64,000 nt of DNA from an uncultured Holophagales bacterium. GTDB taxonomy: Bacteria > Acidobacteriota > Thermoanaerobaculia > Multivoradales > UBA5704. Shown here one piece after another: positions 3,209 through 37,084 of the stretch. The stretch lies in contig CAWJGT010000024.1 of assembly GCA_963842525.1 (NCBI GenBank), positions 32,001 through 96,000 on the forward strand. The letters run 5' to 3'. Below the pieces are notes generated by a model that was given only the letters and a program-made list of their open reading frames with translations, had not been told where the DNA came from and made no database searches. The first letter of the stretch is position 1, and every line of letters starts with the position of its first letter. Position numbers and translations under genes: made by a program.

Positions 3209-4228
3209 CTACCGTTCGGTGAGCATTTCCTCGAGGTACCCGCTGACCGCCTCCCGTTCGCGGGACCCGAAGTACCAGTCGATGGTGCGGTGCAGGCCGT
3301 CCATGAACTTCATCCGCGGCTCCCAGCCCAGGAGCTCGCGGGCCAGGCGGTTGCTCGCCACCCGGTTGAGCGGGCCGGTGGGCATGTGGGGGAGGAGCTT
3401 GACCTCCGCGCTGTGGCCGGTATAGCGCAGGACCTCGCGGACCGCGTCGATCACGCGGGTGCGCTCCTCGGTCCCCAGGTTGACCGCGGTGCCGTCGTCG
3501 ATCTTCTCGGCGGCGAGCACCATGCCGCTCACGATGTCGCCCACGTAGGTCCAGTTGCGGATCTGGGTGCCGTCGCCCCAGACCTCGAACGGGTCCTGGC
3601 GCACGAAGGCGCGGGCGATCATGGCGATCACCGCGTGGTTCTCGACGCCCCTTTCCCCATAGACCGTGAAGAACCGGCAGGACGCCGCCTTGAGGCCGAA
3701 GTCGCGGGCGTAGGCCTTGAGGGTCATCTCGGTCATCAGCTTGGCCCAGCCGTACATGTTGTCGGCGTCGTAGGGCGGGCCCACCATCTCCTCGGTGAGG
3801 TAGAGCTCCTGGTCGACGTCGCCCTGGAGGAAGTTGGGGTAGACGCAGCCGGAGGAGGCGAAGACGAATTTGCCGGCGCCGGCCTCGTGGGCGGCCTTGA
3901 TCAGCATGCCGTCCATCGCGAGGTTCTGCGCGCAGGCTGCCTGGTGGAGGTCGACGAAGCCGCGCCCGCCGTGAATGGCGGCGAGGTGGAAGACGACGTC
4001 GATCCCCTCGACCATGCGCTGCGGCACGCCGGGGTGGAGGAGGTCCTCGCGATGGAATTCCACGACGCCGGAATCGAGATGGGTTTGGATGTTGGCGAGC
4101 CTGCCGCTCGTCAGGTCGTCGACCACGCGGATCGAGCGGGCGCCTTTGTCCACGAGCAGGTCGATCAGATGGGAGCTGATGAAGGAGGCCCCCCCGGTGA
4201 CCAGGATGCGCTGCTGAGTCCAATCCAT
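3209..4228 (-). CDS. NAD-dependent nucleotide-sugar epimerase/dehydratase
   Basis: ILVTGGASFISSHL Rossmann motif and YGWAK catalytic YxxxK; start moved to ATG 4228, which follows a GGGAGG SD. Confidence 0.9.
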   Translation of the reverse strand: MDWTQQRILVTGGASFISSHLIDLLVDKGARSIRVVDDLTSGRLANIQTHLDSGVVEFHREDLLHPGVPQRMVEGIDVVFHLAAIHGGRGFVDLHQAACAQNLAMDGMLIKAAHEAGAGKFVFASSGCVYPNFLQGDVDQELYLTEEMVGPPYDADNMYGWAKLMTEMTLKAYARDFGLKAASCRFFTVYGERGVENHAVIAMIARAFVRQDPFEVWGDGTQIRNWTYVGDIVSGMVLAAEKIDDGTAVNLGTEERTRVIDAVREVLRYTGHSAEVKLLPHMPTGPLNRVASNRLARELLGWEPRMKFMDGLHRTIDWYFGSREREAVSGYLEEMLTER

Positions 4229-4292
4229 CGAGGAGACCTCCCTTCGAGAGCTGCCGGGCGGATGAAGCGCGTAGTGTATGCGAGGAAGCCGG

Positions 4293-5207
4293 TCAGCGGT
4301 AGTGCTCGGTGCCATGGCGCAGGGCCGCCCGGCGTCCGGCGAGCTTGTCGGCGAGGTCCTCGGGCCGCCGGACGAGGAGGCGCCCGGCCAGGCGCAGGAG
4401 CAGGATTTCGAAGCGGAGCCGGGCCAGGACGAGCGCGCGCACCAGCCGCGGCCGGCGGATCTTGCCGGACTTGCGCAGCAGCAGCCAACGGGTCTTGTGG
4501 AAGCGCAGGACGCGCTGGCTCGTGGCCTGCGGCGCGCCCGATCCCTGGTGAAAGGCGACGATCTCGGGCGCCGCCTCGACCCGCCAGCCGGCCCGGTGGG
4601 CGCGCATGCAGAGGTCGAGGTCGAGGTCCAGCCAGTCGAAGGCCTCGTCGAAGCCGCCCAGCGCTTCGAAGGCGCTCTTGCGCACCGCCATGGCGCAGGT
4701 GAAGACGCAGAGCGGCGCGCCGCGGTCGAGGAACCGGCGCAGGCGGGCGTGGAGCCGCTGGCCGAGCACGAGGCTGGCCACTCCGGGCTCGGGCTCGCTG
4801 GAGCCGGTGGGCCTCCCCTGGGCGTCGACGGTGGCGAAGCCGAGGATACCGAGGCGCGGGTCCGCGGCGAACCGGCGGAGGGCCGGTCCGGCGAAGCCGG
4901 TCAACGGCCAGGCGTCGGAGTCGAACAGCACCACGACGTCGGCGCCGACGGCTCGGATGCCCAGGTTCAGGGAGCGCACGAGGCCGAGGTTGCGCGGGTT
5001 GACGTGCAGGCGGACGGGCCCGTCCAGGGTTTCCAGCCCGTCCGGCGCCGGGGCGCTCGAATGGTCGTCCACGACGAGGACGTCCAGGGAGCCGTGCAGG
5101 TCCCCGGCGGTGGCGAGCACCTGGCCGAGGCAGCGGCGGGTGAGGTCCCAGGTCTCGTAGTTGGTGACCACCACCCCCACGGTGCGGGGCTCCGAAGGCT
5201 CTTTCAC
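4293..5207 (-). CDS. Glycosyltransferase family 2 (WbbL/rhamnosyltransferase-like)
   Basis: C-terminal part of the 4293..7892 ORF: VVVTNYET, VVDDHS, NLG, LFDSD, GGFDE, DLDLCMR; GTG 5207 overlaps the upstream stop (GTGA). Confidence 0.85.
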   Translation of the reverse strand: MKEPSEPRTVGVVVTNYETWDLTRRCLGQVLATAGDLHGSLDVLVVDDHSSAPAPDGLETLDGPVRLHVNPRNLGLVRSLNLGIRAVGADVVVLFDSDAWPLTGFAGPALRRFAADPRLGILGFATVDAQGRPTGSSEPEPGVASLVLGQRLHARLRRFLDRGAPLCVFTCAMAVRKSAFEALGGFDEAFDWLDLDLDLCMRAHRAGWRVEAAPEIVAFHQGSGAPQATSQRVLRFHKTRWLLLRKSGKIRRPRLVRALVLARLRFEILLLRLAGRLLVRRPEDLADKLAGRRAALRHGTEHYR

Positions 5208-7141
5208 CGGCGGCTCCGCAGGCTCTCCTGGATGAGCTCGGGGCGGACGCAGAAGTGGACGGCCAGGCGCGCCAGGCCCCAGCCCGTCCGGCGGGAGACC
5301 GCGCGCACCGAGGCGGCATTGCGCCGCGGCCAGGACTGGCCTCCCTGGTCGATGCGGAAGCCCGCGCCCAGGTCGCCCGGCCGGCGGGCGCAGAGCCCGT
5401 CGAGCAGCAGGGAGGTCGCGGGCAGGGGGGCGTCCCAGGGCAGGGTCGCGGGCCAGGGGGCCGAGTCGACGCTCACCCCGGGGCGGGCCCTGGGCAGGAA
5501 GACCCGCACGCCGCCGCACACGCGGACCGTCTCCAGGGGCGGGGCCGGCAGCGGGTGGAAGCCATGATCGGGGCCGGGCGGCGTGAAAAAGAGCCGGGCC
5601 AGGGCCGTCCCGGGGGGATCGGCACCCCGGTAGCGGACGCCGTACCAGGCCTGGAATGCGAGAGGCGCCGCGGCCAGCACGAGGACGGCGGGCCCGACGA
5701 GCGCCCGCCGGCGCGCCGCCGCCGCCAGGACCGGCGGCAGGAGCAGCGCCGCGGCCTGGGCGCAGAGCACCCAGAAGAGGAAGAGCCCGTAGCGGAAGGC
5801 GGGGGCGAGGACGAACCAGGCCGGCAGGGCCACGGCCAGGGGCAGCAGGAGGACCGGCGCGTGGCGGGGCCGCGGCCGGCCGGCCGCCAGCCAGAGCGCG
5901 ATCCACACCGCCGTGAGCAGCAGCGGCACGAGGCCTTCGTGCAGGGCGGGGCGGAGCTCGACCCGTAGCCAGTAGGGCAGCCAGTTGGTGGCGTCCTGGT
6001 GCAGCATGCGGTCCCAGGCGCCGGGCGTCCGCGTATAGGCGCGGGTCCACCAGACCATGCCCGTGCCGTGCTCCGCCGGCAGCCGCCAGTCCACGTCGAA
6101 GGCGGCGGCGGTGGAAGGGAAGAGGGGATAGCCGCTGAGCAGGACGTTGCGCGCCAGCCAGGGCACGCCCGCGGCGAGCGCGAAGGCGACGGCTATGACC
6201 AGAGGACGGACGGCGGCGCGGCGCCGCGGCACGAGAGCGGCGCCCAGGACCACGATCCAGGCCGCGGCGGCGAAGATCCCGGCGGTGGCCTTGAGGCATG
6301 GCGTCACCGACAACAGGAGGAGGGCCGCGAACAGGCGCGGCTCGGCCTCCTCGCGCGGGCGGCCGTCGCCCAGGGCCTCGACGGCGAGGCAGCAGGCCGC
6401 GAGCACGGTCAGGCTGGCCGGCACGTCCGTGGTCAGGCTGGAGACCCAGACGCCGTTGCCGCGGTTCACGATCATGACGGCGGGATAGACCAGGACCGCC
6501 GCGAAGAGCCGGCCGGGAGTGGGCATCTCCCGGGAGGCCAGCAGCTCTCCGATGCGGCGGGCGACCAGGAGGAAGAACAGGACCAGCACGAAGCCGTTGG
6601 CGAAGTGGCTGCTCCGGCCGGTCCCCGGACCCTGCTCCAGGAGCGCCGGGAAGAGGAGCCCCGACAGGTTGACGCCGTAGACCGGGTTCAGGTTGGCCAG
6701 GCCGGGGACGACCGGGAAGCTGTCGAACCAGCGGACCAGCGTGAGGTGGTAGTTGGCGCTGTCGTAGCCGGCGCCGGGGCCGGCCGCGCGGTCGGCCACC
6801 CAGAGGGCGAGGAGGGCCGTGAGGACCACCACCGAGCGCGGCCACCGGAAATCCTCGCCTCCCTCCTTCCTGCCCGGGCCGCGGAGTCCGGCCAGCCAGC
6901 CCGCCAGGCTCGCCGCGGCCAGGGCCGCCAGGGCGCGGGCGTCCACCGGCAGCGCGAAGTGCCAGACCTGGAGCGCGGCCAGGGCCGCGGCGTAGCCGAT
7001 CCAGGCGGCGAGGACCAGGTCCGCGGGACCGGACCGGCTCCCGCAGCCGGCGCGCAGGAGGCCCAGCCCCAGACCGGCGCAGAGGAGGAACAGGCCCCCC
7101 CAGACCGCCAGGATGCAGGCCATGGCGAAGGCGAGCGTCAT
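5204..7141 (-). CDS. Polytopic membrane protein, putative GT-C-type (lipid-linked donor) transferase, LIC_10190-like
   Basis: More than 10 hydrophobic segments; YDSANYH...PVVPGLANL and RNVLLSGYPLFP motifs; ATG 7141 overlaps the upstream stop (ATGA). Confidence 0.6.
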   Translation of the reverse strand: MTLAFAMACILAVWGGLFLLCAGLGLGLLRAGCGSRSGPADLVLAAWIGYAAALAALQVWHFALPVDARALAALAAASLAGWLAGLRGPGRKEGGEDFRWPRSVVVLTALLALWVADRAAGPGAGYDSANYHLTLVRWFDSFPVVPGLANLNPVYGVNLSGLLFPALLEQGPGTGRSSHFANGFVLVLFFLLVARRIGELLASREMPTPGRLFAAVLVYPAVMIVNRGNGVWVSSLTTDVPASLTVLAACCLAVEALGDGRPREEAEPRLFAALLLLSVTPCLKATAGIFAAAAWIVVLGAALVPRRRAAVRPLVIAVAFALAAGVPWLARNVLLSGYPLFPSTAAAFDVDWRLPAEHGTGMVWWTRAYTRTPGAWDRMLHQDATNWLPYWLRVELRPALHEGLVPLLLTAVWIALWLAAGRPRPRHAPVLLLPLAVALPAWFVLAPAFRYGLFLFWVLCAQAAALLLPPVLAAAARRRALVGPAVLVLAAAPLAFQAWYGVRYRGADPPGTALARLFFTPPGPDHGFHPLPAPPLETVRVCGGVRVFLPRARPGVSVDSAPWPATLPWDAPLPATSLLLDGLCARRPGDLGAGFRIDQGGQSWPRRNAASVRAVSRRTGWGLARLAVHFCVRPELIQESLRSRR

Positions 7142-9342
7142 GACGGCCGCCCGGCCCGCGGACGCAGGAGCAGATAGCGGGCGTTGGCGAAGAGGAGCGC
7201 CGGATCCTCGTACAGCCCGAGGCCGGCCCGCTCGCGCTCCAGCACCACGAGGTCGGCGCCCAGGACCTCCGCGATCCGCCGCGCCGCCACGGCGTCCACG
7301 GGCTGCGCCAGGTACGCCCCGGCCTGGCGGAGGGCCGAGCGGGCGGCCCGCATGGCCTGTGGGTTGGCGTAGGACAGGGTGACCGGGTCCTTCCACATAT
7401 AAGCCAGCGGGACGTAGAGCTGGCGCAGGAAGTCGAGGTCGTCCGGGATGGCCACCACCTCGCCGGGGCGGCGCAGCGCCTGCAGGGCATGGACCAGCTC
7501 GAGGCGGGCAAGGGGCACCTCGGGGGGCCGTCCACGCAGCAGGCGCAGGCTCGATCCCGAATGCACCGCCATGTCGCGCGCCGAGACGGCCAGCGAGCCG
7601 CCGTAGCAGGCGAGGAGGAGGGCGCAGCCGGCGAGCGCCGCCGCCCGTTCGCCGAAGGCCCCGGCGACCAGGGGCCGGCCGTCCCAGGAGAGGCGCATCC
7701 GGCCGCCGAGGCGGCGTCTTGTCGACCTGTGGCAACGCACCGCCAGCCCCAGGGAGGCGACCAGGAGGACGTCGACGTAGCGCAGGCCGCGGATGAGGTC
7801 GGTCTGAAGCGGCAGCCGGCCCGCCGCCGCGGCCAGCGCCCAGTCGACGGCGGGCACGGCGAAGACCACGAGGCAGAAGCCGGCCAGCGCACCCCAGAAG
7901 AAGCGCAGGCCGTCCCGGCGATCGTTCCGAGATTGGGTGGACCGCAGGGTCTGCCAGGCCAGGAAGGCCAGGACTGCGAAGAAGAGCCAGAACCGCGGGT
8001 GGCCCAGGACCATGTGGAGGGCGTCCGCGTAGAACACCCGCGGCACGAAGCCGGGCCGGAACGCGGCCAGCTCCGCGAGGCCTCCCCCGCCGGCAGGGGC
8101 GGGCTGCTTCGTGACCAGGACGAGGGTGTAGGGGGCCATGACGGCGAGGGTGACCGCCGCGGCCGCCACGGCGCCCGCCAGGCGGGAGCGCAGCGGCGCC
8201 GGCCCCCCCAGCAGGAGCCCCAGCAGGAGGGCTCCCGACAGCACCGGCGAGCTCACGGGGTGCACGTAGAAGAGGAGGGCCGCGGCGCCGGCCGGAAGCC
8301 ACCAGAGGCGCGGCCGGGCACGCACGCGCAGGGCGAGGAGGACGACCCAGGGGAGGAGGGCGGTGAACAGGGTGCGCGGCCGCACCTGGGAGAACGACCA
8401 GTGCTCGTCCGGCGGGTAGCTCGCGGCGAGCAGGGCGAGGCTCAACGTGGCCAGGAAGCCGAACAGCCGGGAGCGCGAGGCCCGGGACAGCAGGAGGTCG
8501 TACCCCACGAGGCCGATCAACGTGCCGAAGAAGGCGAAGACCGCCACGCTGACGTCATAGGGGAAGCCCAGGGCGTGGATGCCGCGGGCGGCGGCCACGT
8601 AGAGGGGGGTGTACCAGGTGAAGTTCCGCGGCTCGGCGAGGAGCGCGTCGCGGGTGAAGGCGGCGGGCCGGTCCAGGGCCGCGGCGAACGAATTGATGGA
8701 CGCGTTGTCGGTGTCCCCGCTCAGCCAGGGGGACCCCGGAAAGTGGGTGACGAACGAGACCGCGGCCAGGGCGAGGTAGAAGAGACCCTTCGCCGTGCCG
8801 GCCAGCGGCCGGAGCCGCGTGCCGGCCCGGAGCCGGATCAGCCGGGAAGCGCAGAGCGCGAGCCCGGCGAGCACGGCCAGGGCAACGGCGAGCCCGGCGC
8901 GGCGGAAGAACGGCTCGCGCGCCGGCGGCACCTCCAGGCGCAGGACGAGGTCCCGCGGGCGAAAGGCCTCCGGCGGCAGCACGACCTCGCAGCGCTCGCG
9001 GACCTGCAGGTAGTCGTCCCGCGGCGACCAGAGCACGGCCCGCCGGTTCGTCTCGAACGTGGCTCGGGACAGCACCCGGGGCGCCGCCACCTCGCCGGTC
9101 CGCCGGTCCACCACCTCGGCCTTGGGAGGCCGGCCGTCCCAGTGCAGGCGGAAGGGCGGCCTCGTCTCCACGGAGCCGCGGAGCAGGCCGCGCCAGGGCT
9201 GGAACACGGCGCGCTCCAGCGGGATCTCGACGACCTCCATGGCGGCCAGCCGGCGGAAGGCGAGACCGGCCGCGATCACGCAGATCCCGGCGGCAAGCAG
9301 GAGGCCGGCCGCAGCCAAGGCGAGGCCGCGCGTCCCGCTCAC
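7138..9342 (-). CDS. Large polytopic membrane protein with an N-terminal extracytoplasmic domain (possible GT-C-like polysaccharide-modifying enzyme)
   Basis: N-terminal TM, a soluble segment, then many TM helices; probable GTG start at 9342 within the 7138..9471 ORF. Confidence 0.55.
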   Translation of the reverse strand: MSGTRGLALAAAGLLLAAGICVIAAGLAFRRLAAMEVVEIPLERAVFQPWRGLLRGSVETRPPFRLHWDGRPPKAEVVDRRTGEVAAPRVLSRATFETNRRAVLWSPRDDYLQVRERCEVVLPPEAFRPRDLVLRLEVPPAREPFFRRAGLAVALAVLAGLALCASRLIRLRAGTRLRPLAGTAKGLFYLALAAVSFVTHFPGSPWLSGDTDNASINSFAAALDRPAAFTRDALLAEPRNFTWYTPLYVAAARGIHALGFPYDVSVAVFAFFGTLIGLVGYDLLLSRASRSRLFGFLATLSLALLAASYPPDEHWSFSQVRPRTLFTALLPWVVLLALRVRARPRLWWLPAGAAALLFYVHPVSSPVLSGALLLGLLLGGPAPLRSRLAGAVAAAAVTLAVMAPYTLVLVTKQPAPAGGGGLAELAAFRPGFVPRVFYADALHMVLGHPRFWLFFAVLAFLAWQTLRSTQSRNDRRDGLRFFWGALAGFCLVVFAVPAVDWALAAAAGRLPLQTDLIRGLRYVDVLLVASLGLAVRCHRSTRRRLGGRMRLSWDGRPLVAGAFGERAAALAGCALLLACYGGSLAVSARDMAVHSGSSLRLLRGRPPEVPLARLELVHALQALRRPGEVVAIPDDLDFLRQLYVPLAYMWKDPVTLSYANPQAMRAARSALRQAGAYLAQPVDAVAARRIAEVLGADLVVLERERAGLGLYEDPALLFANARYLLLRPRAGRPS

Positions 9343-9388
9343 GGCGCGGCCCGCCGCGACACGGCCTTGGCCGGATCGGATAAATCCA

Positions 9389-10159
9389 TCATGCTCCGGC
9401 GGGCGGCACGGCGAGGGTGTTCCACGGGGGCACCGCCAGCGGCTGTCGGAGGTCCGGAGCTGCTGCCGCATCGAACAGGGTATAGCTGTGTCGGCGGAGC
9501 AGATCGCCCACGGCTCTGCTGTTCGCCTCGGTGACCTCGAGGAGAAGGACCGGCCGGACCATGGACAGCAGCCGCTCCGCGCCCTGGAGGCATAGGTCTT
9601 CGGCCCCTTCCACGTCGATCTTAACCAGCCCGGGAGCCGGAAACCAGTCCAGGAGCCCGTCGAGGGTGACCGTCACTACCTTGCGGGTCTCGCGCTGGCC
9701 GCCGGTCTGGGTGGAGCCGGGGAGGCTCTGCAGGTAATTGCCGGCCCGCCCGCGCTCGGCAATGCAAAGCTCGGCAATCCCGGGGCGGTCGGCCACAGCG
9801 GCAGCGAGGACATCGACTGGCGCATAGCTCGGACCGGCTGTGGCTGCGGACCGGCGCACCAGGGCGGCCAGCCAGTCGTCCGCCTCGACGGCCAGGACGC
9901 GGCCGAAGGGGCCGGCGCGGTGGGCTGCGGCGAAGGCGAAGAGGCCGACGTTTGCGCCCACGTCCCATACCGTCGCACCCGGATTCACCAGATCCCTTGC
10001 CCACTGCAGCAGAAGGGGGTCGACCTGGGCGAGGTCCCGCCTCCACAGCTTGAGGGCCGCGTCCGGAGAGACGTACAGCGCGTGCCCGCCGTGCTCACTG
10101 GGCAGCCGTCGGCGCAGGACGCGGCCCCGGCTCAGCTTTTCGAGGAGGGATCGGATCAA
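9389..10159 (-). CDS. FkbM-family methyltransferase
   Basis: VWDVGANVGLF, LVKIDVEGAE, RPVLLLEV. Confidence 0.9.
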   Translation of the reverse strand: MIRSLLEKLSRGRVLRRRLPSEHGGHALYVSPDAALKLWRRDLAQVDPLLLQWARDLVNPGATVWDVGANVGLFAFAAAHRAGPFGRVLAVEADDWLAALVRRSAATAGPSYAPVDVLAAAVADRPGIAELCIAERGRAGNYLQSLPGSTQTGGQRETRKVVTVTLDGLLDWFPAPGLVKIDVEGAEDLCLQGAERLLSMVRPVLLLEVTEANSRAVGDLLRRHSYTLFDAAAAPDLRQPLAVPPWNTLAVPPAGA

Positions 10160-10165
10160 CGTCCA

Positions 10166-11926
10166 TCAACTCCGGGAGACCACGACGTCCCCCAACACCA
10201 GGCGGTCCATGCGGGTGCGCAGGAAGCAGTCCAGCGCCTCGGCGGGCGTGTTGACGATGGGCTCGTTCTCGTTGAAGGAGGTGTTGAGCACCATGGGCAC
10301 GCCGGTCCGCTCCTCGAAGGCGCGGATCAGCTTCCAGTAGCGCGGGTTGGCCCGCCGCGACACGGTCTGCAGTCGTCCGGTGCCGTCCACGTGGGTGACG
10401 GCGGGGATCAGGGGCCGCTTCTCGGGCCGGATCGGATAGACCTTGATCATGAACGGGTCCGGATGGTCGATGGTGAACCACGTCGCCCGTGCGCTCCTCC
10501 AGGACCGAGGGGGCGAACGGTCGGAAGGACTCCCGGCGCTTGATCTTGAGGTTGAGGAGGTCCTTCATGTCCGCCCGCCGCGGATCGGCCAGGATCGAGC
10601 GGTTGCCGAGGGCCCGCGGCCCCCATTCCGAGCGTCCCTGGTACCAGCCGACGACCTCGCCGCGGGCGAGAGCCTCGGCGGTCTCCACTGCCAGGCGGTC
10701 CTCGTCAGGGACCGCCTCGACACGGACCTCCCCCCACCTGCCGTCCATTCCCCCCGACTCCGGGAGCCCCGCGGCGATCGCCTTGCGGATCTCCGCCTCG
10801 CCGTATGCCGGACCCCAGGAGCAGTGCTCCATGACGAAGCCGTTCCGTGGCGCGCCGAGCACGGCGTGGTGGACCCAGAGGGCCGCTCCCAGGGAGGTGC
10901 CGGCGTCGCCGGCCGCGGCCTGGATGTAAACGTCCTGGACGTCCGTCCGGTCGAAGAGCTTGCCGTTGGCGAGCGAGTTCATGGCGCAGCCGCCGGCCAG
11001 GGCCAGGCGCGACAGGCCGGTCCGCCTCTGGAGGGCGCGCACCAGGGCGAAGAAGCGCTCCTCGTAGACGGCCTGGAGCGAGGCGGCGAGGTCCTTGTGG
11101 CGTTGCGTCAGCTCCTCGTCCGGGCGCCGGGCCGGCCCCAGGAGCTCCTCCAGCGCCGGGGTGAAGACCCGGCCGAGCTCGGGGTAGCCGTCCTCCCAGG
11201 TCATGTCCACGCCCTCGGAGAGGTGGCGGAAGTAGCGGAGGTCGAGCCGGAACGTGCCGTCCGGCCGCGCGGGCACGACCTGCCGGAGCTCGGCGGCGAA
11301 CGCGGGCTCGCCGTAGGCCGCGAGCCCCATCACCTTGTACTCGTCGCCGAAGCCGGGGAAGCCCGAGGAACTGGGTGACCGCCGTGTAGAAGAGCCCCAG
11401 CGAGTGGGGGAAGTGGACCCGATCGAGGACCTCGACCGAGTTGCCGCGGCCCACGGCCATCATCGGGGAGACGAAATCGCCGAAGCCGTCGACCGTCAGG
11501 CACATCGCCTCCTCGAACGGCGAGCAGAAGAAGGCCGAGGCCACGTGGGCCAGGTGGTGCTCGACGGAATGGAGACGCGGCGAGCGTCCGAAGACGGCGG
11601 CGACCCGCTCCTCCAGCGACTGCACCTGGGCCAGGTTGCGCGCGCGGCCGGCCGCGCGGCGCAGGCGACCGCGGGTGCGAGAGGGCGAGCAGGGCCTTGC
11701 GCAGCAGGTAGGCGCGCGGCTGGCGCGACACCGCCAACGCGGAGACGTCCTCCATCCGGCCGCCCAGCTCGCCCAGGCAGAAGCGCAGGGCCTGCTCCGG
11801 GAACCCCGCCCAGTGCTTGATCCGCCGGAACCGTTCCTCCTCGACGCCGGCCACGAACCGGCCGTCCGCCACCGCCGCGGCCGAGGCGTCCGCATGAAAC
11901 GCGCTGATCCCGAGGATGCGCGTCAT
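10166..11926 (-). CDS. O-carbamoyltransferase (NodU/CmcH/TobZ family), broken by three +1 frameshifts (~11665, ~11363, ~10481)
   Basis: ILGISAFHADAS, EEERFRRIKH, EHHLAH, DGFGD, EYKVMGLAAYG, GPRALGNRSILADPR, KRRESFRPFAP and LNTSFNENEPIV are spread over four ORFs; removing one base at each site restores a single frame. Confidence 0.88.
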
Positions 11927-32351: not shown

Positions 32352-32416
32352 GTCGGGCTGAGGCTCTACTCCAAAGTTACGGCAGCAACAGATATCCGCG
32401 AAAACGCGGCAGTATT

Positions 32417-32668
32417 GTGTCAGAAGGGCGGGGGCAAGACAAGGAGGGGGTCGCAATCCGTGACGACCTCCTCGCAGCCGTCGACCGCGCCGCGCAATCG
32501 CGTGGCGAGTCCAGGAACCGGTTCGTCATCCAAGTGCTCCAGCAGGCCGTTCGTGCGCGCCGTGATGCCGAGGTTACAAAGCGTCTGAACGATCTCTTTG
32601 CCGATGTCGAGCCCAGGGAAGAACAGGCGCGCACGGTCTCCGGAGGGTTCCTGTCGGCGATCTGCTAG
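32417..32668 (+). CDS. CopG-like ribbon-helix-helix protein, probable orphan or degenerate antitoxin
   Basis: GVAIRDDLLAAVDRAAQSRGESRNRFVIQVLQQAV matches the RHH beta-alpha-alpha pattern; N- and C-termini look eroded; no toxin gene follows. Confidence 0.55.
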   Translation: MSEGRGQDKEGVAIRDDLLAAVDRAAQSRGESRNRFVIQVLQQAVRARRDAEVTKRLNDLFADVEPREEQARTVSGGFLSAIC

Positions 32669-32742
32669 GCCGGTAGTCCCGGCCGAGCGCCATGGCGTCG
32701 CATGAAGAGGATACACCAGGAAGGCAAGGGGCACTCGTTCCC

Positions 32743-35271
32743 TCAACCCAACTCGTCGGCCGCCGGCAGGCCGAGTGCCGCCGCGCTCGCGCGGGCACGC
32801 AGCAGAAGCGTTCGTAGCTGCTCCAGAGGAACATCTCGCATCGCGTTCCATTGCCGATAGGCCTCCGGCTGGTGCTGCGCCAGCTTCTCGAAGGTGGCCA
32901 TCAGGTTGGGGTCTTCGAGGCGGACGATCAGCCGGTGAGCGAAGCGTTGCGCGAGGCTGACGTGGACCGGGCTTTCGTGATGAAAGGGGCTCGCGGGCGG
33001 GGATGGAGCGAAGCCATAGCCCGGTTGCCCGTCGAGATCGCGTGCCTGGTGTGCGAGGGCGCGGACAGAAAGGTGAATGAAGACCACGCTCTTCAGGGAC
33101 CTGGATGATACGCCGAGGAGCTCGGCCGCTGCGACGATCACTTTTGAATAGAGCACGAGCCGGCCTGTCGTGTCGTATTGACCAAGGAGGTTCCCCGTCA
33201 CCAACTCGCGGCGGTCCAGTCGCTCTCGGAGAAGGCGCCGCAAACCAGCAGCGGACGTCAGCAGCTTCCTGCCTTTGTCTCCAAGGTTCTTCTCGGCTTC
33301 CTCCAGAGTTACATGCCAGTTCCGCCGATCTTTCCTCAGTAGCTCTTCCCACAGAAGGAAAGGGGGCGTCTCATCGGAAAGCCCGAGGTTCTCGGCTTGG
33401 TCGCTATGACGCCGGTGGAGCCATTCAATGGGCGCCCAATCCTCGCGCTCGTCCGAGTGCTCGTCGTCTGCACGTCGCGAAGCCAGAATCTGACCTCCGG
33501 CGAGCGCGATCCGGTCAGGGTCGTAGCGGAGACCCATCAGGTCTTCGGCTAAGAGGCGATAGCCAGCCAGGCAAGGAGCTTGGCCTCGGTATTGGGTGTA
33601 TTTCAGAACCGCCTCGACCGGGAGGCGCCAGAAGAGTGGCGCGAATAGATCCTTCGCAACCCAATGATCCAGGTCTCCTCTGAACGGCCAATCATCCTTG
33701 AATTCGCGGTGCCACCGAACGGGAGCGGAAGGTGAAGCCTGGTGCAGAATGCGCGCCGCGAGCTCAGGCTCCTCTGTGGCTGCCAGCCCGTCGAGAACCC
33801 TGCGAGCTCGTGTGGGTCGCCAGGGTGGAATCCGGTGGACCGCCGCAACTGCGGCCATGTTTTCCCGCCACTCGCTGATCAGCCACGCCACGGCCTCGAC
33901 ATGACCATGGCGCAAGGAATCGAGCATCGCATCGACGGACTGATCCCCCACATCTGGGAGAAGGTCGAACTCTCTGGGCAAAGGCGGGTCCCATCGATCG
34001 GTGGGCCGTAGCGCGGCCTCGGCAGGACGACGGGCGTAGATCCGGCGCTCCACTCCATCCTTCTCGTTGCGGCAAAGGAGCACCAGACAACGCACGGTGG
34101 TGCTTTTATCCCAGAAAACCTTCGCCGCGTCCGCCTCCTCCTCTGTGACGTACTCCACAGCCATCAACGGTCGGCCGGCGTCGCTGTGGCAGACGAGGTC
34201 GGCGTAACGACTGCCTCGGGGACGATGCCCCTCAGATCCGTACAGAACCCCTTCCTCGATCGCGGATTCGTCCCAGGGAGCAAGGATATCGAAGAAACCG
34301 TGTTGCTCCCTCCGCCTGGTAAGATCCTCCTTGAGGGAGGCGACAGCCTCCAAACGCCCCAGCGCATCCTGGGCACGCTGGGCGGAGGAGGGAAAAAGCT
34401 CTCGGAACAACTCCAAGTACGACTTGTAGAGAGGGGAAAAAGCGCTCGCGGTGCTCTCACCACCAACGACTCGGTCCGCCGCGCCATGCATTTCATCATG
34501 GGGGAGGACGAAGGGCTTGCGTTCCTTGGCCTTTTTTTCCCTGGCTTCGCGTTCCTCCCCGAGCGCAAGCAGCCTTTCTACACCTGCCGCGAAAGGTCCC
34601 TCGCCGGGAGGCGAGGATGTCGCTCGGGCGAGCACCGGTACGATCCGGACCCGCCGCCGTTCTTTGGGTCTCGGCGCTGACTTCACCGCCTCAGCCACGG
34701 TGAGGGTCCCGTCCAGCGACTCCTGATTTGCAACGAACATGCAGACGACGGTGTCGGCGAGAATCGTGGTTGCAAGCCCCCCGAGCTCCGTCACTCCGGT
34801 GCGGGCATCGATCAAAAGGTAGTCCGGTTTGAGCTCCTCCTCGAGGCGAGCGTGCAAGTCGAGCAGGGGTAGCAGCCCTTGTCCGCTCGGATCGTCGAAG
34901 CGGACCTGCTCTCCAAGCTGCTTGAGCGCCGCCCAGTAGACCCGGTCCGGGGCCGGTCCCGCGGGCATCAGCCGCAGCCAGCCGCCCGAGCCCGGAGGCA
35001 CCGGGACCTCGATCATGTGTTCTTCCAGCGGAGGGGGAGACAGGGCTCCTTGAGCCGTCGCGACCAGGTAGGGAACGGCGCCGCCCATCCTCTCCGACGC
35101 ACCTTCATGGCTCGCCGCGCGGCCCAGCTTGTAGTGCAGCCCAGGTGCCTCGAAGTCGAGATCGAGGGCCACCACGCCCCTGCCGAGCGAAGCCAGAAAG
35201 CGCGCTGCGTTCGCCAGGAGCAGTGAGCGCCCGACTCCTCCCTTGTACGAGTAGAAGGCCAGCGTCTCCAC
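32743..35271 (-). CDS. Multidomain ParA/MinD-like P-loop ATPase (KGGVGR variant) with degenerate REase-like and zincin-like C-terminal domains
   Basis: FYSYKGGVGRS Walker A variant, LDLDFEAPGL, YLLIDARTG; later ADLVC...PLMAVEY and LLGQY...LVLY...VVFIHLSVRALAH...LAQ. Confidence 0.75.
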   Translation of the reverse strand: METLAFYSYKGGVGRSLLLANAARFLASLGRGVVALDLDFEAPGLHYKLGRAASHEGASERMGGAVPYLVATAQGALSPPPLEEHMIEVPVPPGSGGWLRLMPAGPAPDRVYWAALKQLGEQVRFDDPSGQGLLPLLDLHARLEEELKPDYLLIDARTGVTELGGLATTILADTVVCMFVANQESLDGTLTVAEAVKSAPRPKERRRVRIVPVLARATSSPPGEGPFAAGVERLLALGEEREAREKKAKERKPFVLPHDEMHGAADRVVGGESTASAFSPLYKSYLELFRELFPSSAQRAQDALGRLEAVASLKEDLTRRREQHGFFDILAPWDESAIEEGVLYGSEGHRPRGSRYADLVCHSDAGRPLMAVEYVTEEEADAAKVFWDKSTTVRCLVLLCRNEKDGVERRIYARRPAEAALRPTDRWDPPLPREFDLLPDVGDQSVDAMLDSLRHGHVEAVAWLISEWRENMAAVAAVHRIPPWRPTRARRVLDGLAATEEPELAARILHQASPSAPVRWHREFKDDWPFRGDLDHWVAKDLFAPLFWRLPVEAVLKYTQYRGQAPCLAGYRLLAEDLMGLRYDPDRIALAGGQILASRRADDEHSDEREDWAPIEWLHRRHSDQAENLGLSDETPPFLLWEELLRKDRRNWHVTLEEAEKNLGDKGRKLLTSAAGLRRLLRERLDRRELVTGNLLGQYDTTGRLVLYSKVIVAAAELLGVSSRSLKSVVFIHLSVRALAHQARDLDGQPGYGFAPSPPASPFHHESPVHVSLAQRFAHRLIVRLEDPNLMATFEKLAQHQPEAYRQWNAMRDVPLEQLRTLLLRARASAAALGLPAADELG

Positions 35272-35277
35272 GGTCGA

Positions 35278-35694
35278 TCAGGCCGCCAGCCCGAAGGCGC
35301 CGCCCTGTTGGAGCCGGCGAGCCAGGACGCGAGCGTCGTCTACGCCGTGATGTCTTGCCGCGTAACGAAACCGGCTGGCGAGGGTCTGCGCATCCTCCTC
35401 CAGGATTGCGCGAAGCGCGGTCCGCAGGGTCTTGGGGGCGTGCTCCTCGGCGAGATAGCGCTGGGCCAGGGTCTGGGCGCGGGCGTAGTCCCGGGCCTTC
35501 AGTGCCGCCCGCACCGCACCTCGCCGGGCGATACGCCCTTCCGGCTGCGCGACGGGGAGGGCCGCCGCCAGCTCCTCCTCGAGCGACGAAACCTCCGCCC
35601 AGGCCAGTGGCGCGGAGCTGACTCCGTGCTCTTCGAGCTGTTCGGCGCGCCAGATAGCGGCGGTGACGAGCGAGTGCAGCACATCGGTGCTCAC
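35278..35694 (-). CDS. Small alpha-helical (TPR-like) protein of unknown function
   Basis: 138 aa from GTG 35694 (GTGA overlap with the upstream gene); amphipathic helices (AWAEVSSLEEELA, IARRGAVRAALKARDYARAQTLAQRYL). Confidence 0.7.
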   Translation of the reverse strand: MSTDVLHSLVTAAIWRAEQLEEHGVSSAPLAWAEVSSLEEELAAALPVAQPEGRIARRGAVRAALKARDYARAQTLAQRYLAEEHAPKTLRTALRAILEEDAQTLASRFRYAARHHGVDDARVLARRLQQGGAFGLAA

Positions 35695-36212
35695 GGCCGC
35701 CTCGCCTTGGTTGAATGGAGAGCTGCCGCGGGCTCTTCGAACCCTACGACGCCGGCCCACCTTTGATCCACGTCCTCACTATTTGCAACCTGGCCGAGCT
35801 TCTCGGCGAGCCTGGGTGCGATCTCCCCACGGTCGACGCCACTGACTTCCAGCGCGACGACCTGGCGCGTACCCTCGCTCGTCTTTTCAAGAAGCCAATC
35901 GGCGTGCTCCTCGCGCTGCATCCGCCGCACGACGCGCCAGCCTCGATCCCGGTGCGCCAGAGCAAGCGCGACCGCCTCGGCGCCGTCCTCCGTCACTCGG
36001 TTGTAGTCATGTTGGTCCAGGCTGGCGAGATCGGAGCTGGCCCAAGAGAGCACCCCCTGGGTCACGACGCGCTCGAGATCCAGGCTGATCGCTGCTGGAG
36101 ACCCATGGCCGTTTCGCTGCAGGCCGAGTGCGGCGCGAGCCGTCATTACGAGGACGAGGTCTTCGGGTAGTCGTGGATGCATCTCGTGAAGCTCGCCGAG
36201 GTTGATCTCCAT
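35691..36212 (-). CDS. Putative PD-(D/E)xK restriction-endonuclease-fold protein (E...D...ExS variant)
   Basis: 173 aa from ATG 36212 (3' part of the 35691..36860 ORF): TEDGAEAVA helix, HADWLL, VALEVSG, RLAEKLGQV, VVGFEEP. Confidence 0.6.
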   Translation of the reverse strand: MEINLGELHEMHPRLPEDLVLVMTARAALGLQRNGHGSPAAISLDLERVVTQGVLSWASSDLASLDQHDYNRVTEDGAEAVALALAHRDRGWRVVRRMQREEHADWLLEKTSEGTRQVVALEVSGVDRGEIAPRLAEKLGQVANSEDVDQRWAGVVGFEEPAAALHSTKARRP

Positions 36213-36222
36213 ACCACTGAAT

Positions 36223-36286
36223 CTTCGCCGGTTTTGGTGCGGCGAAGCAACCCCCGAGCCAGAGCGTCCAGAGCGTCGCTGGGGGT
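36223..36286. other. Two adjacent hairpins plus a 9-bp direct repeat at the cysQ/island junction
   Basis: CTTCGCCG-N9-CGGCGAAG (36223-36247); ACCCCC(G)AGC...GCTGGGGGT enclosing CCAGAGCGT x2. Confidence 0.45.
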
Positions 36287-36289
36287 CCC

Positions 36290-37084
36290 TCAACCAGCCC
36301 CTGCCGCCGCCCGCCGGGCGATCTCCTCTTCGATCTCCGGCAGGAGCTGCGGCGGGGTGGCGATCAGGCTCGAGAGGAGCGGCTTCGGACGGTTGAAGCG
36401 GTGCTCCTCGGGGCTGCCGGCCACGATGGCGCCGCCGGCGGCGAGGACGAGGGCTACGCCCGCTGCCACGTCCCACTCGTGCTTGGGGACGAGGGTCCAG
36501 GTGGCGTCCGCCTGGCCGGAGGCGACCAGGCCCAGCTTGTAGGCGACCGAGCCGCAGGGCCGGATGGTGAACAGGTCCTCGCGGTAGCCTTCCCACTCCT
36601 TCCGCTTCACCTCGCTCCGGCTGGCCACGACGGTCGCGCCGGCGAGCCCCGGCCGGCCGCTGACGTTCACCGGCTGGCCGTTGCGGGTCACCCCCATTCC
36701 CCTGGCCCCCACGATCCGCTCGCCGGTCGCCGGGTTGCAGATCCCGCCGGCCACCGGCTCGCCGTCGACCACCAGGCCCACCGAGACGCACCACTCCGGG
36801 ATCCCCTCGACGAACTCGCGGGTGCCGTCGAGCGGGTCCACCACCCAGGCCCGCCGGCAATCGACCCGCGACAGGTCGTCCCGCGTCTCCTCCGAGAGCC
36901 AGCCCTCGCCGTCCTGCGGCAGGATGCGTTTCAACAGGGCATCCACAGCCAAATCCGCCTCGGTGACCGGGTCGTCCCCCTGCTTGCGCTTGGCTTCGAT
37001 ATCGCCGGGGGTGAAGCGCTGGAAGAGGGTGTACGCCTCCTCCAGCGCCCGTTCGATACGCGCCAGCTCGGCGCTCCAGCTCAC
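36290..37084 (-). CDS. cysQ: 3'(2'),5'-bisphosphate nucleotidase (PAP phosphatase, inositol monophosphatase family)
   Basis: DPVTEAD, WLSEE, VDPLDGTREF, VVASRS, KHEWDVAAG; coupled to the sat-cysC gene. Confidence 0.88.
   Translation of the reverse strand: MSWSAELARIERALEEAYTLFQRFTPGDIEAKRKQGDDPVTEADLAVDALLKRILPQDGEGWLSEETRDDLSRVDCRRAWVVDPLDGTREFVEGIPEWCVSVGLVVDGEPVAGGICNPATGERIVGARGMGVTRNGQPVNVSGRPGLAGATVVASRSEVKRKEWEGYREDLFTIRPCGSVAYKLGLVASGQADATWTLVPKHEWDVAAGVALVLAAGGAIVAGSPEEHRFNRPKPLLSSLIATPPQLLPEIEEEIARRAAAGAG

Follow-up and report, generated by a model that had tools for sequence, protein, structure and literature searches.

A three-gene cassette with an Arg-P-loop ParA-like ATPase in an uncultured Holophagales bacterium is a probable TA-ParA-type module

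We analysed three genes located at positions 32,743 to 36,212 of a 64,000-nucleotide stretch of DNA from an uncultured Holophagales bacterium (contig CAWJGT010000024.1; the whole stretch is hereafter called the window). An initial annotation, made from the sequence alone, had proposed that this trio is an undescribed defence or conflict system composed of a nuclease, a small partner and a ParA-like ATPase. The trio lies on the minus strand and is tightly packed, with gene 1 (173 aa) followed by gene 2 (138 aa) and gene 3 (842 aa): the stop codon of gene 1 and the start codon of gene 2 overlap as GTGA, and 6 nt separate the stop codon of gene 2 from the GTG start of gene 3 (Table 1). The starts chosen for all three genes fit the lengths of hundreds of homologues. 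The GC content, computed over 500-nt windows, is 0.60-0.67 between 32250 and 35000, a range that spans gene 3, and about 0.69-0.70 in genes 1 and 2, as compared to 0.70-0.76 in the flanks. On one side the trio is flanked by genes for a CysQ-like phosphatase (Inositol_P) and a bifunctional ATP-sulfurylase/APS kinase, and on the other by a NusG-like gene. Aligned by blastn with a genome of the same genus (G004), the window loses homology at 36303 and regains it at 32372; in G004 the cysQ-like gene is separated from the NusG-like gene by 1.25 kb, with unrelated DNA in place of the cassette segment. The tight, co-oriented linkage, the lower GC content, clearest across the ATPase gene, and the interruption of an otherwise coherent locus, all described in the initial annotation, are thus borne out.

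Using an alignment of gene 3 relatives, we retrieved 80 genome loci and searched them by tblastn with the three proteins and with profile hidden Markov models (HMMs) of genes 1 and 2 (loci, genomes and contigs carry the prefixes L, G and C, respectively). Genes 1 and 2 were found directly upstream of the ATPase gene, in the same order and on the same strand, in 38 of the 80 loci, which shows the trio to be a conserved unit. Another 36 loci harbor other KGGVGR ATPase families with neither gene 1 nor gene 2, and contig ends cut four more (L003, L018, L024 and L028), the end of gene 2 being visible in two of these. The two exceptions are L006, with a gene 2 fragment only, and L034, where none was found. 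Many rows of the two HMMs derive from the tested loci and therefore match by construction; nine loci outside the HMMs (L004, L010, L013, L014, L017, L023, L025, L030 and L041) match as well. Moreover, relatives of each protein occur by the hundreds in metagenomes, with matching contig sizes and adjacent public locus tags. In one locus (L019:1493-2422) a second KGGVGR ATPase, 47% identical to residues 1-324 of gene 3, is encoded directly upstream of gene 1, so that this cassette has a ParA gene on both sides.

Genome bins carrying the cassette are labelled Acidobacteriota, Verrucomicrobiota, Planctomycetota, Alpha- and Betaproteobacteria and Actinomycetota, with one bin labelled Thaumarchaeota. 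In the tree of the ParA module, a Verrucomicrobiota/Planctomycetota group is nested inside Acidobacteriota groups, therefore the cassette moves between phyla. Gene 1 was detected at E<=1e-3 in 8 of 41 related genomes, the five same-genus genomes lack a close copy of it (best identity 25-29%), and its family profile at 1e-10 found a match in 3 of the 301 genomes sampled from the phylum. We conclude that the cassette is accessory, horizontally acquired and patchily distributed across phyla.

Of the three genes, gene 1 shows the strongest conservation (64-84% identity among near homologues). It has 501 homologues at E<=1e-3 among the candidates, and its family profile matched 1626 cluster representatives at E<=1e-3, 677 of them at 1e-10; nearly all members are stand-alone proteins of approximately 165-175 aa. 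Across 35 sequences (alignment A2), residues E75, D105 and E122-V-S124-G125 are invariant, in agreement with the E...D...LEVSG pattern noticed initially, and so are R134 and K138 on the helix that follows the third strand. The AlphaFold2 (AF2) model built from these 35 sequences has a predicted local distance difference test score (pLDDT) of 96.4 and consists of a helix (residues 70-90), three strands (93-97, 106-112 and 115-126), a second helix (132-142) and a last strand (150-157). This order corresponds to the core alpha-beta-beta-beta-alpha-beta fold of PD-(D/E)xK nucleases, with E75 on the first helix, D105 starting the second strand and E122-x-S124 on the third. In a VIA structure search, the top 10 of the rows shown and most of the others were PD-(D/E)xK proteins, aligned over residues 68-173 with Z-scores of 4-6.6 and root-mean-square deviations (rmsd) of 2.8-5.1 over 83-118 residues (Table 1). 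Foldseek against the PDB returned nothing for the gene 1 model at E<=0.001, the weak rows being nucleases of the same fold; the gene 1 profile against PDB sequences reached at best E 0.42, and there was neither a Pfam match nor a PADLOC match at E<=1. Because the match list is uniform and accompanied by the motif, the Z-scores being middling, we consider a restriction-endonuclease-like (REase-like) fold of the C-terminal ~100 residues to be supported by the model. Of the REase-fold nuclease that had been proposed, the fold therefore stands but the canonical lysine is missing. Lysine migration occurs among PD-(D/E)xK enzymes and, judging from the conserved positions, gene 1 may be a variant nuclease in which K138 or R134 on the next helix stands in for the lysine. 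We predict that gene 1 is the toxin, or effector, of the trio.

Relatives of gene 1 also exist outside the cassette. Remote ones (25-29% identity) in G004, G005, G006, G009 and G013 have no adjoining ParA gene; for the one at L098:5998-6549 on the minus strand (G013, contig C64), the next gene encodes a 382-aa protein with no Pfam match. A gene 1 homologue with 42% identity, at L099:6880-8238 (G017, contig C1), precedes a 284-aa open reading frame (ORF) whose first 94 residues are gene 2-like and whose remainder matches AdoMet decarboxylase (8.9e-8). No ParA gene was found there within 16 kb, and a 1730-aa vWA protein is encoded upstream.

Gene 2 has 436 homologues at E<=1e-3 among the candidates, and most of the matches listed are 135-139 aa long. 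Residues R16, E39, G53, A56, R57, G59 and A64 are invariant (alignment A3). We found no Pfam, NCBIfam or PADLOC match at E<=1, no hit of its profile to PDB sequences below E 0.27, and unnamed look-alike clusters only in the ESM Atlas, where an automatic cluster name is all that bears on the putative helical/TPR-like character noted initially. In a prediction of the complex of gene 1, gene 2 and ParA residues 1-300, the real set scored no higher than a control with another chain in place of ParA. From its position alone, gene 2 is predicted to be an antitoxin or adaptor.

Gene 3 begins with a ParA-like module. Residues 2-195 match NF047398 (AAA_KGGVGR, 'KGGVGR-motif variant AAA ATPase') at 3.8e-36 and with 125 bits against a cut-off of 90, as expected of the multidomain KGGVGR ATPase that had been recognized in the sequence. 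NF047398 is a domain model without an attached function; it covers a quarter of gene 3 and is silent on genes 1 and 2. Among 14 sequences (alignment A1) R15 is nearly invariant and D37, D39, P43 and G44 are invariant. The partition and MinD models of NCBIfam, on the other hand, scored 12-15 bits against cut-offs of 180-213. Gene 3 thus resembles the ATPases of ParABS and MinDE systems in its ParA/MinD fold, its signature lysine K10 and its Walker B motif, and departs from them in the arginine replacing the P-loop lysine, the long tail and the accessory distribution. We found no partner of the ParB, MinE or centromere type, and genes 1 and 2 lack Pfam matches.

ParA/MinD ATPases with small partners position many cargos, and one might therefore see in the trio a housekeeping system of this type, with two cargo adaptors and no relation to conflict. 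The polysaccharide and sulfate locus around it in the window would suit such a role, as would the public annotation that names one gene 2 homologue 'ParB-like'. However, the surrounding genes change from one locus to the next, same-genus genomes lack the cassette, a match occurs in 3 of the 301 genomes sampled from the phylum, the P-loop lysine is an arginine, the tails of relatives are immune-type domains, and neither ParB nor any other Pfam family matches genes 1 and 2. Based on these findings, we regard a positioning function as very improbable.

The tail of gene 3 (residues 296-842) was modelled with a pLDDT of 82.8 (model m8e245a33a669). The first 150 residues of this model gave VIA matches to 3ijm (Z 8.6), 9y1l (Z 8.3), the N-terminus of HsdR (3h1t, Z 8.3) and TT1808 (Z 7.9), in keeping with a second REase-like domain, and weak HSDR_N_2 Pfam matches were present in 3 of 21 tail members (best E 0.017). 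Pfam on the tail alone gave otherwise only noise, its profile had no match to PDB sequences at E<=10, and Foldseek against the PDB returned nothing at E<=0.001 for the tail model. The comparison of the gene 1 family with the gene 3 tail by hhalign gave a probability of 0.12, therefore the two REase-like domains are not detectably paralogues. For the helical-repeat region that follows, we claim from the model the class of fold alone, since this arrangement is common.

The remainder of the tail is predicted to adopt a zincin-like fold, its best VIA matches being DPP III (5zum, Z 9.0, rmsd 3.9, 163 residues aligned), 3cmn (Z 8.5) and LTA4H (5fwq, Z 7.5), followed by several M1 aminopeptidases and BepA (Z 6.4-6.6). 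The HExxH motif is missing from the 10 rows of alignment A4 nearest to the window; the 10 distant rows (L026-L045) carry an HET/HHA-type H-E-x-x-H, save L028 (HHAVY) and L037 (HMTVY). The distant clade mostly reads H-E-T-x-H-A-x-x-H, followed by a conserved H-E-x-L-A-Q. This pattern indicates, at the level of sequence, that the peptidase site is dead in the clade of the window and probably alive in the sister clade.

The tail is also the variable part of the cassette. The ATPase is tail-less in 12 cassette loci, where it ends at 270-323 aa and the downstream DNA is unrelated and often encodes on the opposite strand; tblastn matches of these short forms stop at approximately residues 290-325. 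The ParA-module tree requires at least three separate changes for the loss of the tail (five by parsimony). In L038:3496-6299, genes 1 and 2 (~39% identity to those of the window) precede a ParA with a TIR_2 and NACHT tail, whose ORF runs off the contig. The other KGGVGR ATPases among the 80 loci have NACHT plus FGE-sulfatase, caspase-like peptidase or TPR tails, and the window's own genome holds two further KGGVGR ParA genes.

A class of systems with this anatomy was described by Li, Burroughs and Aravind (bioRxiv 10.64898/2026.10.19.760177, 22 Oct 2026). In their preprint, ParA proteins whose Walker A lysine has become an arginine and which carry a PG motif behind sensor-1 make up a clade named ConB2. 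TA-ParA systems are presented there as a type II toxin-antitoxin (TA) pair with a ParA fused to variable sensors, which are mostly TPR but also include SAVED, an inactive metallopeptidase and a NACHT module; of six toxin subtypes, subtype (iv) belongs to the REase superfamily. The same source proposes that the ParA switch reorganises the toxin-antitoxin pair once the sensor detects an invader and, for other ParA systems, that ParA multimers intercept DNA. As regards the cassette, gene 3 has the ConB2-type arginine in Walker A and a PG motif downstream of DxD, the variable ParA tails include a dead zincin (window) and TIR plus NACHT (L038), and a fixed three-gene unit, spread over many phyla, combines a partner with a predicted toxin that belongs, at the level of fold, to the REase superfamily. 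Every class feature that we tested was found in the trio, which makes it a likely TA-ParA system of the REase-toxin subtype; the main text of the preprint gives this subtype and its antitoxin without detail, and we infer the identity of the family. The second REase-like domain in the ParA tail, the sister-clade zincin that keeps HExxH, the repeated loss of the whole tail, the direct-repeat flanks described below and the TIR-NACHT variant go beyond the preprint passages to which we compared the cassette.

Considering all the above results, we interpret the trio as one horizontally acquired TA-ParA-type module, in which a toxin-antitoxin pair is placed under a ParA-like NTPase switch; we give this reading a probability of roughly 0.6. 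In the resting state, gene 2 would keep gene 1 inactive. The tail of gene 3, with its REase-like, helical-repeat and dead zincin parts, could sense that an invader is present, the signal being perhaps a phage protein or foreign DNA, upon which nucleotide-dependent dimerisation or remodelling of the ParA domain would release gene 1. The freed gene 1 would then cut nucleic acid and stop the infected cell (abortive infection). We put forward this complete chain of restraint, sensing, release and cleavage tentatively, its chances being slightly under even. The logic of a sensor ATPase, an adaptor and a nuclease contained in the initial annotation matches this anatomy and the published TA-ParA model. 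Its claim that the system is undescribed, instead, fails, since the class, the REase-toxin subtype and inactive-metallopeptidase sensors on an Arg-P-loop ParA are already in the preprint of 22 Oct 2026. The earlier interpretation is thus right in outline but not new, and the mechanism, as far as the preprint passages go, is a published hypothesis. A literature text search for KGGVGR returned nothing relevant.

The two further KGGVGR ParA genes of the window's own genome (G000) stand in arrangements that the preprint passages describe. The one in L095 (contig C1, ORFs 4743-6011 and 6008-9595) encodes a 1195-aa ParA-nSTAND1-TPR-S protein, and its start is overlapped by a gene for a TIR-domain protein, the layout called 'TIR-ParA' there. 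In L096 (G000, contig C23, ORFs 3841-5217, 5235-6206 and 6203-11389) a C-N hydrolase, a winged-helix (wHTH) protein and a 1728-aa ParA ending in WD40 repeats are encoded in a row, matching TA-ParA subtype (i).

Several observations weigh against the TA-ParA reading. The canonical lysine of D...(D/E)xK is replaced in gene 1 by an invariant serine (S124), the fold Z-scores (maximum 6.6) fall in the middling range according to VIA's own note, and gene 1 may be no nuclease at all. Neither a DNA-binding nor a known antitoxin domain was found in gene 2 by Pfam, NCBIfam, PADLOC and PDB-sequence searches, and a toxin-first gene order is less common among type II TA pairs. The tail-less forms persist with intact genes 1 and 2, which fits poorly with an essential sensor. 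A tblastn search with gene 1 of 72,556 plasmids and 50,697 phages gave no match. The cassette flanks are mostly housekeeping genes that differ from locus to locus, and PADLOC matches at E<=1e-10 were found in 13 of 127 flanking ORFs from 25 loci, a scan that left out the last six cassette loci. Finally, the preprint is itself computational and the class is known from comparative genomics.

Most of the PADLOC matches in the flanks are generic (OmpA/MotB, DEAD helicase, ABC, sigma-54 activator), and we judged three to be specific, namely Avs2 (L008), PDC-M32A (L027) and the second KGGVGR ATPase of L019. The enrichment near defence genes that the initial annotation had put forward as a check was therefore not seen in the cassette flanks, and the idea of a defence island is unsupported. 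Toxin-antitoxin, insertion sequence (IS) or integrase genes lie near the cassette in a few loci (L007, L008, L015, L016, L019 and L039).

The REase-like domains could, instead of cutting, serve as binding modules, with genes 1 and 2 as adaptors and ParA itself as the effector, for example as a multimer that coats or sequesters invading DNA. Both domains keep acidic residues without the canonical lysine and, the zincin being dead in this clade too, the ATPase may be the only conventional active site in the window copy; moreover, interception of DNA by ParA multimers is what the preprint proposes for other ParA systems. On the other hand, the E-D-E triad of gene 1 is invariant over 35 sequences down to 38% identity and so has the look of a selected metal site, and gene 1 is better conserved than its two neighbors. 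Since the lysine is known to migrate in PD-(D/E)xK enzymes, its absence from the usual position also counts for less, and we find this alternative improbable.

Direct repeats of the upstream gene bracket the cassette in 4 of the 34 loci tested (Table 1), and a thiC fragment follows the ATPase gene in L009 and L011. At the empty site of G004 (L100:2789-2935, contig C157) we found a 147-bp duplicate, with 76% identity, of the 3' end of cysQ (window 36308-36454). It sits about 560 nt after cysQ, and the cysQ ORF of G004 is approximately 50 residues longer than that of the window. The cysQ site looks like a recurrent insertion spot. A repeat pattern of this kind would result if a circular fragment had been taken up by a single crossover, and we treat it as a lead. 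No recombinase, integrase or transposase is part of the cassette. A 10-nt identity at both cassette ends (TCCCTCAACC) was rejected as a target duplication, since a match of this length can be expected by chance in 5.7 kb of GC-rich DNA. From the direct repeats of 196-377 bp in three loci and the cysQ fragment left at the empty site, one could imagine a small mobile unit that needs no integrase to insert near the 3' ends of unrelated housekeeping genes and carries a replacement copy of the target end, with one or both REase-like domains serving a homing-like spread and the immune triad doubling as a selfish element; we consider this scenario quite unlikely.

The trio might also be chiefly a selfish addiction or homing cassette and not an immune one, its REase-like proteins serving its own insertion or post-segregational killing, and it would then persist because it is hard to lose. 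This would account for a cassette that stands alone between or inside unrelated housekeeping operons that are rarely the same from locus to locus (thiC, glcDEF-like genes, carboxylase subunits, cysQ), for the direct repeats in L009, L011, L037 and L026 and the cysQ duplicate at the G004 empty site, and for the degraded copies in L025 and L030; the homing endonuclease I-Ssp6803I is, in addition, among the fold matches of gene 1 (Z 5.0). However, the unit has no integrase or transposase, the repeats occur in 4 of 34 loci only and have the geometry of a single homologous crossover of any circular fragment, and the 10-nt identity shared by the two cassette ends in the window is within chance. No plasmid or phage copy with gene 1 was found, and the swap of the ParA tail for TIR-NACHT points to an immune logic. 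We therefore hold a chiefly selfish nature to be unlikely and retain the TA-ParA reading. The copies in L025 and L030 (~7100-8800, in two Bryobacterales genomes) are decayed, with gene 1 truncated, gene 2 split across two frames and the ATPase start disrupted.

Table 1. Positions of the cassette genes, domains and motifs in the window, gene 1 fold matches, and direct repeats in other loci (positions of the repeats refer to the respective locus)
Feature	Position	Strand	Remarks
Gene 1	35691-36212	-	173 aa, ATG start
Gene 1 N-terminal subdomain	residues 1-67	-	invariant H12, H36, W57
Gene 1 REase-like core	35694..36011 (residues 68-173)	-	invariant columns, secondary-structure order, fold matches
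Gene 1 invariant residues	E75 35988-35990; D105 35898-35900; E122 35847-35849; K138 35799-35801	-	alignment A2
Gene 2	35278-35694	-	138 aa, GTG start
Gene 3	32743-35271	-	842 aa, GTG start
ParA-like module, residues 1-295	34387..35271	-	conserved in all cassette loci including short forms
Walker A K10-G-G-V-G-R15-S16	35224..35244	-	Arg in place of P-loop Lys; then D37-x-D39 ... P43-G44
Second REase-like domain, residues 296-435	33967..34386	-	conserved E340, D358, E373, without canonical Lys (alignment A4)
Helical-repeat region, ~residues 445-575	33547..33939	-	VIA helical-repeat proteins Z 6-7.4, tail model 150-280
Zincin-like (metallopeptidase-fold) domain, ~residues 551-833	32773..33621	-	VIA matches, tail model residues 256-538
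Lost HExxH position	33061..33075	-	window H733-L-S-V-R737 vs H-E-T-x-H in sister clade (alignment A4, columns ~515-525)
Strain-specific segment (3.9 kb)	32373..36302	.	cassette and small ORF 32417-32668; blastn of L100 vs window
VIA match of gene 1, alkaline exonuclease 3syy			Z 6.6, rmsd 2.8, 98 residues aligned
VIA match of gene 1, Hjc			Z 5.7
VIA match of gene 1, tRNA splicing endonucleases			Z ~5
VIA match of gene 1, I-Ssp6803I (homing endonuclease)			Z 5.0
VIA matches of gene 1, Cas4, lambda exonuclease, HamA			Z 4.3-4.5
L009 repeat	365-741 and 4565-4941		377 bp, 89%; part of thiC
L011 repeat	1745-1940 and 6399-6594		196 bp, 88%; part of thiC
L037 repeat	995-1301 and 4924-5230		307 bp, 94%; phosphoesterase gene
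L026 repeat	7002-7035 and 11384-11417		34 bp, 100%

Among the other known systems, the ATPase domain of gene 3 matches PADLOC PDC-M28B at 9.8e-22, which is the sole PADLOC match of the trio. Only profile positions 130-306 of 438 are covered and PADLOC holds no model matching genes 1 and 2 at E<=1; the trio thus shows neither a full-length M28B match nor the M28A partner that PDC-M28 calls for. The cassette also resembles STAND/NLR-like proteins (Avs, NACHT) in that an NTPase switch lies between a sensor tail and a lethal effector, and the ParA of L038 is fused to TIR and NACHT. It differs from them in that the switch has a SIMIBI-class ParA fold and not an AAA+ STAND fold, and the effector forms a protein of its own, presumably paired with an inhibitor.

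The surroundings of the genes gave few further elements. The strain-specific segment also contains an 83-aa ORF (32417-32668, plus strand), which is convergent with gene 3, looks ribbon-helix-helix-like by eye and corresponds to the antitoxin remnant of the initial annotation. We dropped it as a component of the system, since Pfam gave nothing for it at 1e-5 and none of the other 80 loci has a homologue of it next to the cassette. In the leader of gene 1 (36213-36289, minus strand) we observed a tandem 9-nt repeat (GACGCTCTG x2, at 36260-36277) and a perfect 8-bp inverted repeat (CTTCGCCG/CGGCGAAG) with a 9-nt loop (36223-36247), which may represent an operator or mark where the cysQ transcript stops. 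Folding of the 96-nt leader of gene 1 was no better than that of shuffled sequences (z = -0.23). No sigma-70-like promoter was found, nor any tRNA gene in the window, and the three terminator-like sites detected compare with 2.6 expected.

If the TA-ParA model is true, the cassette would represent a compact immune switch for which a ParA fold, and not a STAND or AAA+ ATPase, supplies the framework. Its three small parts are easily expressed and mutated, and one family offers natural controls, with the tail present or absent, the zincin motif live or dead, and one TIR-NACHT tail. Such natural variants could show how an Arg-P-loop ParA acts and what it senses. Altogether, the cassette opens no new class, but it adds a well-dissected example to one that, according to the preprint passages, is known from comparative genomics alone.

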